Positions 13,720 through 21,631 of a DNA stretch of 64,000 bases are shown piece after piece (position 1 is the first letter of the stretch; each line of letters begins with the position of its first letter). The DNA is from Candidatus Bathyarchaeia archaeon (GTDB lineage Archaea > Thermoproteota > Bathyarchaeia > Bathyarchaeales > Bathycorpusculaceae): contig JBEKSS010000001.1 of NCBI GenBank assembly GCA_049516875.1, positions 160,001-224,000 on the forward strand. Reading direction: 5' to 3'. The translations under genes were made by a program, and so were the position numbers. The notes under the pieces were generated by a model that made no database searches, was not told where the DNA came from, and saw nothing but the letters and a program-made list of their open reading frames with translations.

Positions 13720-14868
13720 TTGAACGGAGAGAATCGTCGAACCCAACTTTACGAGATGCATCGAAAAACTGGGAAGCTAACGGTTTTCGCCGGCTTTGAG
13801 ATGCCAATGTACTACAAAGATATAACGCCTGAGCATCTGGCTGTACGAAACAGCGTCGGCGTCTTCGACATCAGTCACATGGGAAGAGTAATGGTTACAG
13901 GCATTGACTCTGAACGCTTGCTAAATTATGTGATAACAAACGACGTTTCAATGTTGCAGCCCAACGCCGCACAGTACTCGGTTATGTGCAACGATAAGGG
14001 AGGCATAATTGACGACTTTGTTCTTTACCGGTTGGAAAACGAGAAGTTCCTGGTAGTTTTCAATGCGAGCAACCGCGAAAAAGACCATGGCTGGCTAGTT
14101 GAGTATGCTAGAGGTTTCGACGTAAAAATTGAAGAAATCTCTGAAAGCGTCGCGATGTTTGCAGTTCAAGGTCCGAGCGCCGAAAAAACGTTGCAGAAAA
14201 TCTCCACTGAAGATCTGAGCAAGATTGGAAGATTCAAGTGTGGACATTCCAAGTTAGCCGACGTTGAAGTCTTTCTGTCTAGAACGGGTTACACCGGTGA
14301 AGACGGGTTCGAAGTCTTCGTCTGGAACGCTTCACTTGCAAAACCAGACAACGCCGTGAGATTGTGGAAAGCCATTCTTGAAGCTGGCAAGACTTTAGGG
14401 ATAGAACCTTGTGGTTTAGGAGCAAGGGATACTTTAAGACTTGAAGCTGGACTGTGCCTGTACGGAAACGACATAGATGAAAGCACAACACCGCTTGAAG
14501 CCACATTGGGCTTTGTCGTAAAACTGCAGAAGAACCGGTTTATAGGAAAACAAGTTTTGCTGAAGCAGAAGGCTGAAGGAGTGAAACGCAAGCGCGTTGG
14601 AATAAGAATGACAGATCAGGGAATACCTCGACAAGGTTTTGAAATCTACTCAGAAATTGGAGAGAAAATAGGTCAGGTTACAAGCGGAACGTTTTCTCCT
14701 TTGCTGAGGTTTGGAATCGGCATGGGCTACGTTGAGACCCCTTATGCTCAGGAGGGAAGGGCGGTAGGCGTGAGAATACGCGACAAAACCGCAAAGAGCA
14801 AGATAGTGGGGTTACCATTTTACGACACTGAAAAATACGGGTTCAAACGTAAAGCGATCAATGCTTGA
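13720..14868 (+). CDS. gcvT: glycine cleavage system aminomethyltransferase T
   Basis: FAGFEMP, GVFDISHMG, SRTGYTGEDGFE, GLGARDTLRLEAG, VTSGTFSP. Confidence 0.96.
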   Translation: MNGENRRTQLYEMHRKTGKLTVFAGFEMPMYYKDITPEHLAVRNSVGVFDISHMGRVMVTGIDSERLLNYVITNDVSMLQPNAAQYSVMCNDKGGIIDDFVLYRLENEKFLVVFNASNREKDHGWLVEYARGFDVKIEEISESVAMFAVQGPSAEKTLQKISTEDLSKIGRFKCGHSKLADVEVFLSRTGYTGEDGFEVFVWNASLAKPDNAVRLWKAILEAGKTLGIEPCGLGARDTLRLEAGLCLYGNDIDESTTPLEATLGFVVKLQKNRFIGKQVLLKQKAEGVKRKRVGIRMTDQGIPRQGFEIYSEIGEKIGQVTSGTFSPLLRFGIGMGYVETPYAQEGRAVGVRIRDKTAKSKIVGLPFYDTEKYGFKRKAINA

Positions 14869-15011
14869 AACTGAGGATTCGCTTCGATGATCGTTTTCTC
14901 TGGAAAGGTATATACCAATGGCTTATGCCATCTAAACCATCCTTCAAGAGCCATCTAACCGCAAGGGAAATAAAACACTTCAGTAGAGTCTGTAAGAGGA
15001 ATGAATCTGAG

Positions 15012-17273
15012 ATGAAGCTTCCCAACGTCCTGTCCAAAGAAGGCGCGATTAACGGTTTGAAGAATCTGGGAAAACTGCGAGTCAAAATCAGCCGCACTTC
15101 GCTACTGACTTTCGCGGCGTTGATGCTCATACTGTTCGTCGCTTTCACCATACGGATTCTTCCTATCCGTTGGGAAATAGGATCAGACGTGATACACCTG
15201 TCCGAATTTGACGCGTTTTTTGAATTTCGCATAGGGAGCTATATGGTAAACAATGGACTGTTTTCGCCCTTTTGGCCAAAGCTGTGGGTTGATACTCAAC
15301 TTTGGGCCCCACAGGGAATCAACATGGGCTCAAATTCACTTCCTTCGATACCTATGACAGGAGCTTTTCTTTATGATTTAATCACTCTCTTGGGTGTCAA
15401 TATAAATTTTATGAGCTTCTGTGCACTTATGCCTCCGATATTCGGCACATTGTGTGTTTTGATCATGTATTTCATCGGAAAGGAATTCGGAGGAAAATCC
15501 GTCGGAATGCTTGCCGCACTTATCCTAGCTCTAGACGCATCTTTCATCTCAAGAACCAACTTGGGCTGGTTTGAAACTGAAACAGCTACATTTTCCTTTC
15601 TTCTGTGCTTTCTGGTGTTTCCAAAGGCAATAGAGGAAGAGAGATCCATCGGTTCGTCGGTGAAATACTCGCTCGTCTCTGCAGCATGCCTGGCCTACTT
15701 CATATTGGGGTGGGGCGCAGCATATTATCTGGTAGATTTGGTAGCGCTTTACGTTTTTGTTTTGATTCTGATGAGGAGGTATACGAAGCGCATTTTCTTG
15801 GCGTACAGTGTAACGTTTGGGTTGGGACTCTTGATAGCGATGAGTGCTCCCTTCCTGGGAATAGATTACCCAATAAGCTATGCAATATTACCCGTTGCGG
15901 GCGTCTTTATCTTGCTTTGCCTAAGCGAAGTTTTGCACAATCTGACGTCGGCAAGAGAGAGGTTCATACTTACTGTAACAGTCATAGCGGCCCTGATCGG
16001 CACCTTCGTCGCTATTTCCGCCTTAGGATACACAGGCAGCATAGCGGGCAAGTTTCTAACAGTTATAAACCCCTTACTGCGAAGTGCGAGCCCACTCGTA
16101 GAATCTGTCGCCGAGCACGGAATATCCGCTTGGGGCTCAATGTATTATGACCTAGGCATATTGATAATATTCTTCATCGTTGGACTGTATTTCATTTCGA
16201 GGAATCTTGGTAACAAGAACCTGTTCTTGTTACTCTTCGGTTTGACATCTCTGTATTTCTCTGCATCCATGGTGCGCTTGCTTTTCCTCCTGGCACCAGC
16301 CTTCGGCCTCATCTCTGCTGTTGGAATAATAGGCGTGCTAAGACCATTCATCGCGATGTTGAAGGAACCTCCAAAGATAACAGCAAAGAAGTTTCGTTTA
16401 GAACATGTTGGAAAAGAATTCAGCGGAACTGCCGTTTTCCTGATATTCCTAATTTTAATGACACAATTTGCTTTCTCGCCCCAATCTGGTGGTATACCCA
16501 AAGTGTACAGCCAAGCTTATGCTCCTTTGACAGTTTCAGCAGCCAGTCTTCCGATAGTTCCCAACGGGCCAGTGACGGAATGGCTGGACATGCTCGCGTG
16601 GACGAAGAGTAACCTCAATCCGACTGATGTTGTTGACGCTTGGTGGGACTATGGATTCTGGTTAACAATTCTGGGAAATGTAACGACGCTTAACGACAAC
16701 GCAACAATAAACGACACGCAGATAGAAAACGTAGGCTTCACGATGATAGCCAACGAGACTGAATCGCTAAATATGTTGAAGCTGTACCACGCGAAATACA
16801 TTCTCGTTTTCACCACTCTGTCTCTGACAACACAAAGCGGTTATACATATGCCGTTGAAGCCGGTTACGGCGACGAAGGCAAATGGACATGGATGGCAAG
16901 AATCTCCGGGCAGAGCGCGCACGAGTCGGGACTGGGTAATGTTAGCAAATGGCCGGGATGGAATTGGACTGATGAAAGCGCTTTCGGGAGCTACGTCAAC
17001 ACTACGACCTATTGGCCGAATAATTGGGCTTGGAATCAGCAGGGATACAACACGACAATTTACAAATTGATGACTTGGGCAAGAAGCCTGTATTGCAACG
17101 CGCAGGGAGTGATTGACCCGGACGCGGGCAATGTCACTACAGTTAACGACCTAGGATACTTTGAACCGGCATACATTGCCGGGTTGACTCTTACCCCAAC
17201 AGACGCCAGTAGTAAATATGGCAACTTGGTTCCACTCGTCGCCCTGTACAAGATAAAGTATCCCGACGGATGA
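15012..17273 (+). CDS. aglB: oligosaccharyltransferase AglB/STT3
   Basis: EFDAFF, SVAEH, WWDYG, NDNAT, GDEGKWTWMARI; multi-TM N-terminal half; ATG at 15012 preferred over 14865. Confidence 0.94.
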   Translation: MKLPNVLSKEGAINGLKNLGKLRVKISRTSLLTFAALMLILFVAFTIRILPIRWEIGSDVIHLSEFDAFFEFRIGSYMVNNGLFSPFWPKLWVDTQLWAPQGINMGSNSLPSIPMTGAFLYDLITLLGVNINFMSFCALMPPIFGTLCVLIMYFIGKEFGGKSVGMLAALILALDASFISRTNLGWFETETATFSFLLCFLVFPKAIEEERSIGSSVKYSLVSAACLAYFILGWGAAYYLVDLVALYVFVLILMRRYTKRIFLAYSVTFGLGLLIAMSAPFLGIDYPISYAILPVAGVFILLCLSEVLHNLTSARERFILTVTVIAALIGTFVAISALGYTGSIAGKFLTVINPLLRSASPLVESVAEHGISAWGSMYYDLGILIIFFIVGLYFISRNLGNKNLFLLLFGLTSLYFSASMVRLLFLLAPAFGLISAVGIIGVLRPFIAMLKEPPKITAKKFRLEHVGKEFSGTAVFLIFLILMTQFAFSPQSGGIPKVYSQAYAPLTVSAASLPIVPNGPVTEWLDMLAWTKSNLNPTDVVDAWWDYGFWLTILGNVTTLNDNATINDTQIENVGFTMIANETESLNMLKLYHAKYILVFTTLSLTTQSGYTYAVEAGYGDEGKWTWMARISGQSAHESGLGNVSKWPGWNWTDESAFGSYVNTTTYWPNNWAWNQQGYNTTIYKLMTWARSLYCNAQGVIDPDAGNVTTVNDLGYFEPAYIAGLTLTPTDASSKYGNLVPLVALYKIKYPDG

Positions 17274-18163
17274 AGGATGACGATTTGTTTCCGAGAGCCC
17301 CTGACCAACATAAACCAAACAGACCGCTGGTTCCGAACGGTTTAGGCGTCATCTACGTCATCATCAGCACCGTGTACATTTTTCTCCTGTATTTCTTTGA
17401 CGTAAGGTTCAGCGTCGCTGACGGTGTCTCTGCGTCTCTGACATTGGCGGTGTGCATCTTGTTCGGCGGCTTCATGGGTCTTCTAGATGACTGGATGGAT
17501 CTTAAGTGGCGATACAAGGCTTTCCTTCCACTGATAGCGGCCATACCGCTTGCTACTTTTGCAAGTTCCAACCCTGCAGTGCGTACTGCTATAGCTCTCC
17601 CCCTTCTAGGGACCATACACTTCGGGAGCTACTATTATTTCATAATCATTCCAATCCTCGTGACGATAATTACGAACACTGTGAATCAGCTTGGCGGTTT
17701 GAACGGTTTAGAAACAATATGTCCCGCGATAGTTATGATCGGGCTAATGTCCATCTCAGGGTCTTATGCAATCCTCTTGCTCTGTCCATTAATCGTTTGG
17801 CTGATACTTGCGTTCCTCAATTTTCGGGGGAGGATCTTCGTTGGCAACACTGGATCCTTTGCCATAGGGATAACAATCGCTGCTTTTGCAATCATCTCGG
17901 ATCTAAAGTTCGATTTGGTAATCTCGGTTTTGCCATACATATTCAATTCAGCTTTAATCCTCTTGACATTCTTCTTCTACAGGACTAAGGCCAACGTTTC
18001 CTTTGACGGCAAACGACTCGTGTCAAACCACAGAAGAAGCCTGATAACGCTCCTCACCTTTAACCATCCGCTGACCGAAAAACAGATAGTCGCAATAATC
18101 TCTCTTTTAATGGTGGCTACAACTTTCGCAGCTGTACTTGCCCGACGACTGTTAATGCTCTGA
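17270..18163 (+). CDS. MraY/GPT-family polyprenyl-phosphate HexNAc-1-P transferase (AglH-like)
   Basis: PDQHKP..P.VP, GLLDDW, NTVNQLGGLNGLE, IFVGNTGS; ATGA overlap with aglB. Confidence 0.85.
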   Translation: MKDDDLFPRAPDQHKPNRPLVPNGLGVIYVIISTVYIFLLYFFDVRFSVADGVSASLTLAVCILFGGFMGLLDDWMDLKWRYKAFLPLIAAIPLATFASSNPAVRTAIALPLLGTIHFGSYYYFIIIPILVTIITNTVNQLGGLNGLETICPAIVMIGLMSISGSYAILLLCPLIVWLILAFLNFRGRIFVGNTGSFAIGITIAAFAIISDLKFDLVISVLPYIFNSALILLTFFFYRTKANVSFDGKRLVSNHRRSLITLLTFNHPLTEKQIVAIISLLMVATTFAAVLARRLLML

Positions 18164-18265
18164 CGCCTTGCACACGCTCCACAGTATTTGTGGCACAATG
18201 CATTCAGGGCATAGGATTATAGGGACCAGTAGCGCCCGCCCAAGCTTCTTGCGAGCTTTCTAGGC

Positions 18266-18277
18266 AAGATTTAATAA
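18266..18277 (+). promoter_or_regulatory. probable BRE/TATA promoter of queT
   Basis: AAGA-TTTAATAA about 30 nt upstream of the structured leader and about 100 nt upstream of the start codon. Confidence 0.5.
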
Positions 18278-18300
18278 CTCATATGTAAGAAGTGAGCATA

Positions 18301-18372
18301 GAAGTATCCGGCGGGTGAGTGGGCCTCCACCCGTTCCGCCACAATAAACCCCGGAGTAGGAGGTGCATGTAG
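18301..18372 (+). ncRNA. candidate structured 5' leader / riboswitch of queT
   Basis: TCCGG 18307-11 pairs with CCGGA 18351-55; CGGGTG 18312-17 pairs with CACCCG 18328-33; loop GCCTC(C) is complementary to SD GGAGGT 18359-64. Confidence 0.5.
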
Positions 18373-18927
18373 TTGAAATTTGATACTAGGGACATCACTC
18401 TAACTGTTGTTTTCACGGGGTTATATGCCATGATTAATTTTATGCAATTGTATTCTCCTTTCGGGAATCCTTCGATCTACGGACCCGTGCAGTTACGTCT
18501 CTCAGACTTCTTAATCGCGTTGGCTGCTTTGCTGGGAATGCCTGTCGTCATCGGAGTTACATTAGGATGTGTTGTGGTTAATGCATTTGGATCAATAGGG
18601 CCGATTGACATAGTCTTTGGTTCCCTTGCCAATCTCATAGCAGCAACTCTTGTGATGCTGCTTAGAAAACGCAGGTTACCAGCATGTATTGTAGGTGCAA
18701 TGCCTATAGGAGTAATTGTTGGAGGCGGATATCTATGGATGTTCTACCCTTACCAGACTGCAGAACTCGCGTTCTTGCCTGCTTGGATTGCGACACTAGT
18801 CAGTATTACGATCAGCAGCTTGATAGCTGTCGCGTTCATAGGCTACGCAGTTCTACGAATATTGAGCAGACCGGCAATCATCGAACCGCTGAAATCACGT
18901 GGACTTAAGACACTGGAAAAGAACTAA
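18373..18927 (+). CDS. queT: QueT-family (COG4708) ECF S-component, queuosine-precursor-type transporter
   Basis: SIYGPVQLRLSDFL (GxxQxRxSE motif), GVTLGCVVVNAF, DIVFGSLANL; strong SD GGAGGTG. Confidence 0.85.
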   Translation: MKFDTRDITLTVVFTGLYAMINFMQLYSPFGNPSIYGPVQLRLSDFLIALAALLGMPVVIGVTLGCVVVNAFGSIGPIDIVFGSLANLIAATLVMLLRKRRLPACIVGAMPIGVIVGGGYLWMFYPYQTAELAFLPAWIATLVSITISSLIAVAFIGYAVLRILSRPAIIEPLKSRGLKTLEKN

Positions 18928-18943
18928 GGGGATTGAAACCTCT

Positions 18944-21631
18944 TTACATGAAACGTTCCAGTTTTGTTAGCCCTATTATTTCGTCAAAATCTAGACCTAA
19001 GGCGTCTAAGACCTGATCAAACGTTGAGTGTAAATAGGCTATGTACTTGTCGACATCCACCTCACTCTTTGCTGCCAGTTCAACAGGCTTCACATGTGGT
19101 TCTTTGCTTATTTTGACAAAGCTTATCAGATCGCCTGCCTTCAATTCTGCTCCGTTTTCTCTCAAGATTTTGGCAGCCTTGACATGCTGCGGTGTTGTTT
19201 TTGTGTAGTGTTCGATGTCTTCGCCTAGGACCACATTGAAAGCCAAGTCGCTCATGCTCTCCCACTCTCGCCTCTTGAGTTGCATGTAACAGTCGCGTAT
19301 AATTTCTGCTATGTCTTTTTTCGCCTTCTCGAAATCTGCAGGGGTCTTGACGGTTGCCAAGCGTGTTTTCATTTTTTCAAATGCCCTTTTTATGAATATG
19401 GGTATGTGACGTTTCTTACCTGTCAACCCTTTGACGTCGACAGTTCCGTCCTCTAAGACGCCTAAATAGTTCTTTTTTCTCGAACTGAAGACCGCGTACC
19501 TGTAAACCTTATCGACATCAAGACTCATTTTCAGCTCTTGTTCAGTCCAATGCGCCAGTTCTTCGACCTGTTGTTTTGAGGGATTTTTCAAGAAGAGGCT
19601 GTCCGTATCACCGTAAAGAACTTGAATGCCAAGTTGCTCAGCTTTGTTAAGTATTTGTGTTATGGAGTGTCTTCCTATTGCAGCTGTGGCTTCGGCTACA
19701 GGCGGGCAGTAAAGGTCAAAGCTCTCAGCTCCGAAGACCCCGTAGCTTGCGTTTAGAATTACTTTGAGTGCTCCTTGGGTGACGTTGTACCAGCTTCTTA
19801 GGTCTGAGGTTAGGGCTTTGTCTTTGGATTTTGGCTTGTACCATTGCACTCGAAGGTCCCTTAGGGAACCGATTAGGAGACTCTCTAGTGCTCGCTTTTT
19901 GGTGCAGACCCAGTGTGGTGTGCCTGGGATGAGATTGCTGCGACATTCTGGATGCGGGCACAGGATGGATTGGTAGCCTAAATTCCAAACCTTTATTATT
20001 GAAGGGTACAGGCTTGGAAAGTCCATGACGGCAACGTTGAAGTGGACCCCGGGGACGGGTTCGACAACTATAGCGCCTTTGTATTTCTTGCCTTTGATTA
20101 TTGCTTTCGTTGCAGTTTTGCCCTTTGTTGCGAGTATGTCTTGAGGGGTTGGAATGAGCATATTTCTATGGCGATGTTCGCGTTGAAGGAAGTTTCTTAT
20201 CCAGCGCGATACGCCCTGACGACTGACATCTTCCATAGGCATGCTGCTGATTCTCGTGAGGACCAGAATCAGTTTCATGACTAGTTCATCTTCGAAACTC
20301 GTAAGTTTGAAGGTTATCTCAGAGTCTCTGAGACAGTATTTGGCCAGTTCGGTGTAGGTTAATTCTCCCAAGCTTCTGTCCAGTTTTATTTTTTCCAGCT
20401 GGATCAGCGCTCTTCCTACGTCGTTAAGGGTTATGTCTCGGTAGCGGTTGTTGAAGGCGTATATCTGGATTGAGCGATTGAAGAAGAACTTGTAGAGGTC
20501 AATGTGCACACCATAGCTTAGCAGGCAGGAGCGTTTGCCGATTTCTATTGGAATGTCACTGCGCCTTATGCCTAGGTTCATGGCGCGGTGGGCGAGATAA
20601 CGGAGGTCGAAATCGTCCCCGTTGAAGGTCAACACGAAGGGGTAGTCCCAAAGGACATCTAAAACGGCTTTTATGAGTTTTTCTTCTGTGTCAAAGTATT
20701 CGATTGCTATGTCTGCTGGTAAATGTTCTGCTCCTTCCCGGATTCCTTCGCGTCTAAGGATCAATGTTTTCTCTAGCCCGTCGGAGGCGAATATCGAGAC
20801 GCAGATAACCTGGTAGGCCGCTTCTCTTGGGTCGGGAACTCGTGTTGGGATGGGAGCCAGTACCTCGATGTCGATGGCTACACGACGGAATTTTGGGGCT
20901 GGATATTCGAGTAATCTGGCCCATTCTACGATGAAGCCACACTCTTCTTCAGTGGCATCTTTGAAAGTTTCGCGGATTTTTCCCACTGTTTTCTCAGTGT
21001 CCTGCAAGCTTTTTGCGGCCAAATTGCCATCTTTGACTTCGTATATCATTCCGGGCGAAAGGTTTCGGTCGAAAATGTAGGATTGATAATATTTTATCGT
21101 TGATTCCCATACTTTGATTTGTTCAGGGGCGATTGGTGTGTCCGAGACTTTTGGGAAGTCCTCTGGGATTATGTCTCTGATGCACCCTGTAGGGCGTCCT
21201 CCGATTGCCAGAGGGTCTTTGGTCAGGATTTTTGTTATTTTCACGTCCTTGTCTAGAAGGGGGTCAAATTTGTCGACGGTTTCAAATCGGTCTAAACCTT
21301 GATGATGGACTAGGCGACTGATTCTTTCAAGCTCGTATCGTGACAAATTGGTTAGGCAGTATGGCTGGTGTCCGGTATTGTCGTACCAGAAGTAGATTTG
21401 ACCTGAGGCCGGTTCATAGAGTTTCATTATGGCCTTTCCCACTTTTCCATCGTAGGTGGCGGATACAAGATAGGAAGCGGACAGATTTGGAGGCGCCACT
21501 GGTGGAAAAGCGCGTTTTCCTTTTTCGTTGGCCACGCTTTCTGTGATGATAGTGGCTCTTGGCTCCGTTTTCACTTCTTTTGCATACACAGCTTTTTTGT
21601 GTGAAAAGTCTTCTAAGTGTTTTTGTGCCAT
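18944..21631 (-). CDS. polB: family B DNA polymerase (PolB1-type)
   Basis: AIDIE, TFNGDDFD, YKGA, DFPSLYPSII, KVILNASYGVFG, YGDTDS, KKNY. Confidence 0.97.
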   Translation of the reverse strand: MAQKHLEDFSHKKAVYAKEVKTEPRATIITESVANEKGKRAFPPVAPPNLSASYLVSATYDGKVGKAIMKLYEPASGQIYFWYDNTGHQPYCLTNLSRYELERISRLVHHQGLDRFETVDKFDPLLDKDVKITKILTKDPLAIGGRPTGCIRDIIPEDFPKVSDTPIAPEQIKVWESTIKYYQSYIFDRNLSPGMIYEVKDGNLAAKSLQDTEKTVGKIRETFKDATEEECGFIVEWARLLEYPAPKFRRVAIDIEVLAPIPTRVPDPREAAYQVICVSIFASDGLEKTLILRREGIREGAEHLPADIAIEYFDTEEKLIKAVLDVLWDYPFVLTFNGDDFDLRYLAHRAMNLGIRRSDIPIEIGKRSCLLSYGVHIDLYKFFFNRSIQIYAFNNRYRDITLNDVGRALIQLEKIKLDRSLGELTYTELAKYCLRDSEITFKLTSFEDELVMKLILVLTRISSMPMEDVSRQGVSRWIRNFLQREHRHRNMLIPTPQDILATKGKTATKAIIKGKKYKGAIVVEPVPGVHFNVAVMDFPSLYPSIIKVWNLGYQSILCPHPECRSNLIPGTPHWVCTKKRALESLLIGSLRDLRVQWYKPKSKDKALTSDLRSWYNVTQGALKVILNASYGVFGAESFDLYCPPVAEATAAIGRHSITQILNKAEQLGIQVLYGDTDSLFLKNPSKQQVEELAHWTEQELKMSLDVDKVYRYAVFSSRKKNYLGVLEDGTVDVKGLTGKKRHIPIFIKRAFEKMKTRLATVKTPADFEKAKKDIAEIIRDCYMQLKRREWESMSDLAFNVVLGEDIEHYTKTTPQHVKAAKILRENGAELKAGDLISFVKISKEPHVKPVELAAKSEVDVDKYIAYLHSTFDQVLDALGLDFDEIIGLTKLERFM

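Follow-up and report, generated by a model that had tools for sequence, protein, structure and literature searches.

A conserved queT leader RNA with a Shine-Dalgarno pseudoknot in Bathyarchaeia, a candidate archaeal riboswitch for a 7-deazaguanine

The queT gene and its leader motif

The DNA analysed here, referred to as the window, is a 64-kb stretch (64,000 nucleotides, nt) from a Candidatus Bathyarchaeia archaeon (assembly GCA_049516875.1, contig JBEKSS010000001.1, positions 160,001 to 224,000 of the forward strand), and our subject is the leader of its gene queT. The downstream open reading frame (ORF) was identified as QueT by its Pfam match (PF06177, 81.6 bits, E 8.8e-23). Its leader carries a motif built from two helices (P1 and P2), two nearly invariant segments (J1 and J2), an A-rich linker, an invariant tail and the Shine-Dalgarno (SD) sequence, which is complementary to the loop and 3' strand of P2. 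The parts of the motif and the gene are listed below in window coordinates; R1 is a covariance model built from 27 orthologous leaders.

18308..18365, + strand: whole conserved leader motif, about 58 nt (R1 match, 81.7 bits, E 9.7e-20)
18310..18315, + strand: 5' strand of P1, GGCGG, with G18315 opposite U18335 (pairs with 18335-18340)
18316..18318, + strand: J1 (UGA), nearly invariant, unpaired, between P1 and P2 (conserved in alignments A1, A3 and A6)
18319..18330, + strand: P2 hairpin, GUGG (18319-22), loop GCCU (18323-26) and CCAC (18327-30) (RNAalifold and covariation)
18323..18328, + strand: anti-SD GCCUCC, 5' strand of the pseudoknot, overlapping the P2 loop and 3' strand (pairs with 18359-18364)
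18331..18335, + strand: J2 (CCGUU), nearly invariant, with U18335 opposite G18315 (conservation)
18335..18340, + strand: 3' strand of P1, (U)CCGCC (partner of 18310-18315)
18341..18348, + strand: A-rich linker ACAAUAAA, its last three A invariant (conservation)
18349..18354, + strand: invariant tail CCCCGG (invariant or nearly so in A1, A2 and A5)
18359..18365, + strand: SD GGAGGUG, of which 18359-18364 form the 3' strand of the pseudoknot (7 nt 5' of the UUG start)
18373..18927, + strand: queT, energy-coupling factor (ECF)-type S component for a 7-deazaguanine precursor (184 amino acids, UUG start; PF06177)

The first C of the tail is replaced by U or A in some lineages, and the length of the motif in our models ranges from 57 to 62 positions.

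Conservation and distribution of the motif

A search of related genomes with the QueT protein gave a match in 51 out of 61 and returned 30 loci, one of which (L026) was left out for lying at a contig end, while the others have upstream DNA and were usable. A near-identical stretch of about 58 nt directly precedes queT in 27 of these 29 loci. The remaining two genomes carry the motif about 1.2 kb upstream, before a first queT that is followed by queC. Across the 26 leaders orthologous to that of the window, the median identity to the window copy is 84.7% for the motif and 55.9% for the QueT protein, and identity falls to the background level of about 30% in the 40 nt on the 5' side of the motif. 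A separate observation concerns two related genomes (L029 and L030) in which in-frame TAG stops interrupt the queT match; P1 and P2 of the L029 leader contain mismatches as well. Decay may be affecting both the gene and its switch.

The sole R1 match in the 2.43-Mb genome to which the window belongs is the leader at 18308-18365. Within the class, R1 matches 90 of the 151 sampled genomes, mostly with one copy each, and 69 of the 94 with a completeness of 90% or more and a contamination of 5% or less. A phylum-wide sample contained R1 matches in 28 of 151 genomes; of these, 16 belong to other classes, with weak matches in two. Five loci outside the class show the same motif, with a QueT-like ORF as the next gene in four.

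A pattern scan over one genome per GTDB species matched at least 120 stretches, and among the 80 loci listed R1 confirmed 61. Among these listed and confirmed loci, 51 are labelled Bathyarchaeia or Bathyarchaeota, four Nitrososphaerota or Nitrososphaeria and two Methanomethylicota; the rest are one Promethearchaeota locus at a contig end, two unclassified archaea and one weak bacterial match. The last of these, the only bacterial R1 match among those listed (L191, 20.6 bits), resembles a tRNA 3' end and was rejected. A copy is also present in the record of Candidatus Bathyarchaeum tardum (L149). The other 19 of the 80 listed loci were left unconfirmed by R1 and, judged by their labels, include the other listed bacterial matches.

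Covarying stems and the pseudoknot with the Shine-Dalgarno sequence

The RNAalifold consensus consists of two nested helices only, P1 (GGCGG/CCGCC with the additional G-U pair) and P2 (GUGG/CCAC). Over 100 model-aligned copies, 95.2% of the cells of P1 and P2 are paired as compared to 88.4% in shuffled alignments, and the covariation score is 0.224 against 0.106 in shuffles, a value reached by none of 500 shuffles (slid partners score at most 0.061), although the sequences are related and shuffle tests of this kind are thereby inflated. The fifth pair of P1 (pair 7, G18314 with C18336) reads as GC in 83 sequences, as CG in 16, giving the natural variant GGCGC/GCGCC, and is unpaired in none, and the first (pair 3) is GC in 68, AU in 18, UA in 3 and GU in 5; these are the top two pairs of a mutual-information scan which was not guided by any structure. 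The U-A pair of P2 is UA in 77 sequences, GC in 10 and CG in 3, and the length of the P2 stem changes by matched insertions of G and C (GUGGG/CCCAC, GUGGGG/CCCCAC).

The loop and 3' strand of P2 carry CCUCC, complementary to the SD. In a gap-free MAFFT alignment of 30 copies fitted to no structure (A5), P1, the two outer pairs of P2 and the pseudoknot together are paired in 98.0% of cells compared to 91.0% in shuffles, with a covariation of 0.217 against 0.083 that none of 500 shuffles reached; at one position of the pseudoknot, 22 of these sequences have a CG pair and 7 a UA pair. For the pseudoknot alone, 99 sequences gave 95.0% paired cells against 85.2% and a covariation of 0.332 against 0.161 (0 of 500 shuffles), in an alignment made with a pseudoknot-only model and therefore leaning towards the structure. 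The six best column pairs of the unguided scan are the two P1 pairs and four pseudoknot pairs. The same relation can be seen in the pairing energies: RNAduplex places the duplex between loop and SD at -9 kcal/mol or below in 158 of 162 leaders, and native partners average -13.22 kcal/mol as compared to -11.86 +/- 0.15 for swapped partners, with none of 200 permutations matching the native value. Complementarity is kept where the SD itself varies, as in CCUCCU/AGGAGG, CCUUCC/GGAAGG, CCCUCU/AGAGGG, UCCGAC/GUCGGA (L111) and GCCCCC/GGGGGC. Since two to three nucleotides are common to the pseudoknot and P2, the two helices compete.

A preliminary description of this leader had been made from the letters of the window, and the strings on which it relied are all in place: TTTAATA (18270-18276), TCCGG (18307-11), CCGGA (18351-55), CGGGTG (18312-17), CACCCG (18328-33), GCCTC (18323-27), ACAATAAA (18341-48), GGAGGTG (18359-65), GGCGG (18310-14) and CCGCC (18336-40). 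It was right that the downstream gene is queT, and the comparison of orthologous leaders that it proposed found the motif in 27 of the 29 usable loci. Its pseudoknot between loop and SD is borne out by covariation in several alignments, by the mutual-information scan and by the energies of swapped partners. The nested part of its fold has to be redrawn. The proposed outer stem (18305-11/18351-58) and CGGGUG/CACCCG hairpin have a covariation in A5 of 0.067 against 0.062 in shuffles, reached by 133 of 500 shuffles, and two of their pairs break in 7 of the 30 sequences, exactly where P1 covaries. The outer stem takes the first two G of P1 together with 5' flank that differs among orthologues, and the hairpin takes G18314, which covaries with C18336 and not with C18331. 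This hairpin, pairable in 94% of cells, may be a minor conformer. The pairing GGCGG/CCGCC, offered in that description as an alternative, is real; it is the main covarying stem P1 rather than an alternative. The covarying P2 hairpin GUGG/CCAC was absent from its list.

Genes under the motif and 7-deazaguanine physiology

QueT is the gene that follows in 93 of 100 R1 hits; a conserved, unnamed membrane protein takes this place in four, and in three the gene is unassigned. A usable downstream ORF is present at 95 of the hits; 90 are QueT by Pfam and three further ones, one apparently frameshifted, were recognized as QueT by tblastn. The unnamed protein belongs to one family of genomes:

L070, 215-910; L074, 1009-1695 (- strand); L096, 218-919; L098, 218-919: unnamed multi-pass membrane protein, 229-234 amino acids

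It has no Pfam or NCBIfam match, and its similarity to QueT is weak both by BLASTP (E 0.75) and by hhalign (probability 25%). This protein may be an undescribed 7-deazaguanine transporter.

QueC was found in 40 of the 151 genomes of the class sample, 31 of which also have the motif. In 29 of these 31 genomes queC follows the motif on the same strand, mostly about 500 nt downstream and directly after queT. One locus contains a second queT in addition:

L085, 151-209: motif
L085, 217-699: queT
L085, 681-1352: queC
L085, 1371-1901: second queT, after queC

The motif is also present before genes of synthesis. One genome labelled Nitrososphaerota has three copies (L254, L255 and L256), which precede a queE-like gene with folE, an unnamed ORF of 156 amino acids with queC, and a queE-like radical-SAM gene with queC. 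The copy L255 is a variant, with the tail AUCACGG and CCGAU in J2. In a further archaeal record, a queE-like gene follows a copy of the motif.

The genome of the window is 97.5% complete and has arcTGT (282.8 bits, 676-amino-acid frame), QueC gave only partial matches of 25 bits in it, and QueD was not found. In archaea, arcTGT inserts preQ0 into tRNA, according to passages of PMC4770233 and PMC5372724. Because arcTGT is present, QueC only partial and QueD missing from the matches, the organism apparently depends on the import of the base inserted by arcTGT, which is preQ0 in archaea. QueD was likewise not found in five queC-bearing genomes that are 93-100% complete, which suggests that some lineages import 7-carboxy-7-deazaguanine (CDG) through QueT and finish preQ0 with QueC.

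A probable riboswitch and its alternatives

From the comparative sequence evidence, the queT leader is almost certainly a conserved, structured and pathway-specific leader RNA. The preliminary description had taken it for a cis-acting pseudoknot that sequesters the SD and is tied to 7-deazaguanine metabolism, and this part of it is upheld by the conservation, by the covariation of loop and SD and by the genes queT, queC, queE and folE that follow the motif. We consider that the leader at 18308-18365 is probably an OFF riboswitch that binds a metabolite, either preQ0 or a 7-deazaguanine close to it, and that it would represent an undescribed archaeal class. Without ligand, P2 would hold the anti-SD and leave the SD open for translation of queT. 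At high levels, preQ0 or a very close 7-deazaguanine would bind in a pocket formed by J1, J2 and the AAA-CCCCGG segment and stabilize the pseudoknot; the SD would then be hidden and ribosome binding blocked. Where queC, queE or folE lie in an operon behind the motif, the switch would lower their expression as well. Such a polarity suits genes of biosynthesis as much as a salvage transporter.

The following points weigh against this proposal. The proposed ligand, the polarity and even the direct sensing of a ligand are deduced from the gene context and from the analogy to preQ1 riboswitches. Folded alone, the leader of the window has a minimum free energy of -23.1 kcal/mol compared to a shuffle mean of -22.9 (z = -0.07). 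P2 is only 2-3 bp long in some lineages, and therefore its competition with the pseudoknot is not the whole mechanism everywhere. The mutual-information scan found no covarying partner for UGA of J1, CCGUU of J2, the final AAA of the linker or CCCCGG. CCG of J2 is pairable with CGG of the tail in 98.3% of cases, with no variation, so that the counts are neutral; this pairing could make a compact H-type pseudoknot with the A-rich linker running along P1. A general helix between the G-run of P2 and CCC of the tail was rejected, as uncompensated breaks affect as many as 18 of 88 sequences at a single pair, and it is also ruled out by lineages without the G-run. The QueE-like proteins have all five QueE models as their best matches, at 85-108 bits as compared to equivalog cut-offs of 200-300 (NCBIfam). 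To these can be added the seven hits whose downstream gene is the unnamed membrane protein or unassigned, the relatedness of the sequences behind the shuffle tests and the lean of the 99-sequence alignment.

As for the invariant nucleotides, we infer from their sequence conservation that they may provide the ligand pocket and tertiary contacts, and by analogy to other H-type pseudoknot riboswitches the A-rich linker may dock in the minor groove of P1. A kink-turn reading of J1 and J2, made by eye, was discarded, there being no GA in the 3' strand.

The alternative that survives best, which we nevertheless regard as unlikely, keeps the same riboswitch architecture and assigns it another ligand, namely CDG, preQ1, archaeosine base, queuine or guanine. 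The frequency of queT-queC operons (29 genomes) speaks for it, as do the five queC-bearing genomes without detected QueD, where QueT may import CDG; moreover, passages of PMC11625349 describe the known queT-associated riboswitches as sensing preQ1, some of them binding preQ0 too. Against these stands preQ0 itself, as the base which archaeal arcTGT inserts (passages of PMC4770233), with arcTGT present in the genome of the window, and as the common end product of the queT, queT-queC, queE-folE and queE-queC units.

It is less probable again that the leader is an operator for a protein or RNA acting in trans, which would stabilize or open the pseudoknot with no small molecule bound. The invariant single strands (UGA, CCGUU and AAACCCCGG) could equally be a surface for recognition by a protein. 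However, no conserved partner gene was seen beside the motif, the neighbours beyond queT, queC, queE and folE vary, and the sequence of the element is kept across several classes. Small pseudoknots with A-rich linkers before the same gene family are, in addition, proven metabolite sensors in bacteria, as given in passages of PMC11625349.

The riboswitch proposal also has to be set beside the known bacterial classes. The families that come nearest to it in function and context are the preQ1 riboswitches of bacteria, class II and class I in particular, and the archaeal motif is a member of none of them. Rfam 15 gave no match in the 64-kb window at gathering scores and none at E up to 10 in 18200-18450, and no preQ1 model matched in five other loci; the three preQ1 models (RF00522, RF01054 and RF02680) had no match at E up to 10 in the window leader and the five other motif loci, in agreement with the preliminary description, which had allowed for a new class.

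With preQ1-II (the COG4708/queT motif, RF01054) the archaeal motif shares the position in a queT leader, a pseudoknot between loop and tail that hides the SD, and a 7-deazaguanine regulon. According to passages of PMC11625349, preQ1-II is confined to Bacillota and contains four pairing regions (P1-P4). Whereas preQ1-II has an HLout pseudoknot with an embedded P4 hairpin, the archaeal motif is made up of P1, P2 and its pseudoknot and shows no hairpin in the stretch from P1 to the SD, and it adds the invariant CCCCGG and the A-rich linker. It also differs in its archaeal hosts and in its likely ligand, preQ0 rather than preQ1.

A possible likeness to preQ1-I (RF00522, types 1-3) lies in the architecture, an H-type pseudoknot with a P1 of about 5 bp, an A-rich stretch and a 3' segment whose partner is in the P1 loop; where this class acts on translation, the pseudoknot includes the SD, as in the archaeal motif. 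The latter has a covarying P1 of 5 bp, an A-rich linker and an SD that pairs into the loop enclosed by P1, with the extra hairpin, the internal loop and CCCCGG intervening. PreQ1-I is about 34 nt long and has about 6-7 nt between P1 and the SD. The corresponding values for the archaeal motif are about 58 nt and about 19 nt (18341-18358), and its P1, unlike that of preQ1-I, encloses a conserved internal loop and an additional hairpin. The specificity cytosine of preQ1-I is located in an AC or UC directly before the 3' strand of P1 (passages of PMC11625349), whereas CCGCC is preceded by CCGUU in nearly all archaeal copies, with no AC or UC.

PreQ1-III (RF02680) is similarly found upstream of queT and uses an anti-SD/SD helix as its expression platform. 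It is about 100 nt long, with five pairing regions and an SD far from the pocket, according to passages of PMC11625349. This class is known from Ruminococcaceae and metagenomes and not from archaea; its model does not match the archaeal motif, which spans 57-62 positions.

A very divergent member of class I, II or III would account for the queT context and the SD-sequestering pseudoknot, shared with preQ1-II and -III, and for the 5-bp P1 followed by an A-rich stretch as described for preQ1-I in passages of PMC11625349. The failure of all three models at E up to 10, the GUU before the 3' strand of P1, the lack of a P4-like hairpin and a length of about 58 nt, which fits neither class I nor class III, make such a member very improbable. 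Least credible is a ligand-independent structure that partly occludes the SD and in this way just tunes or limits how much membrane protein is made, or reacts to temperature or ions: pairing of SD and anti-SD lowers translation by itself and the single-sequence folding energy is unremarkable, but an occluding hairpin needs no invariant unpaired nucleotides, P1 or A-rich linker, the motif is far more conserved than the protein encoded downstream, and it also stands before soluble enzymes of the pathway (queE-like, folE and queC).

Returning to the riboswitch for preQ0 or a close 7-deazaguanine, we lean towards a wider claim: that it is a fourth structural solution for 7-deazaguanine sensing and the first riboswitch class found only in archaea, tuned to preQ0, which would control salvage (queT, queT-queC) as well as de novo synthesis (queE-folE, queE-queC) in several classes of Thermoproteota and possibly in Asgard archaea. 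Full-text searches for preQ1, preQ0, 7-deazaguanine, queT or archaeosine riboswitches in archaea or Bathyarchaeia found no account of the motif, which survey supplements may list under another name, and neither preQ nor deazaguanine is named in the main text of a preprint from 2026 on noncoding clusters. If the proposal is true, the class would occur widely in Bathyarchaeia and elsewhere in Thermoproteota, with no member among the bacterial records tested, and it would offer an independent RNA fold for 7-deazaguanine recognition, comparable with the three bacterial preQ1 classes. It would also give a handle on the economy of archaeosine precursors in uncultured archaea, with a regulon that tells salvaging from synthesizing lineages. 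As the RNA is only about 60 nt long, the claim can be tested in vitro without culturing the organism.

Promoter region and neighbouring genes

The remaining features of the locus are the following:

14865-18163, + strand: STT3/AglB-type oligosaccharyltransferase (802 amino acids) and family-4 glycosyltransferase (297 amino acids), with a 4-nt overlap (Pfam)
18270..18276, + strand: TATA-like box TTTAATA, putative archaeal promoter of the queT transcript (seen in the sequence)
18944-21631, - strand: ORF of 895 amino acids, convergent with queT, ending 17 nt beyond it

An A/T box similar to TTTAATA starts 32-36 nt on the 5' side of P1 in 21 of the 27 orthologous leaders; in the window this distance is 40 nt. 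Together with the usual archaeal spacing from TATA box to start, this position suggests that TTTAATA is the promoter and that transcription starts a few nucleotides before P1. Many of the leaders L001-L030 also have GTGCATA or GTGCTTA in common, about 10-15 nt on the 5' side of P1, which may be an initiator element at the transcription start. A metatranscriptome run, which contained 7% of the sampled words, provided a single 151-nt contig of a relative (90-95% alike) that lies within the coding sequence of queT and not in the leader.

The STT3/AglB and glycosyltransferase genes adjoin the queT promoter on its 5' side and are on the same strand. They look like an N-glycosylation gene pair with no relation to the leader motif. 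On the other side of queT, the translation of the 895-amino-acid ORF contains a YGDTDS-type motif, typical of family B DNA polymerases.

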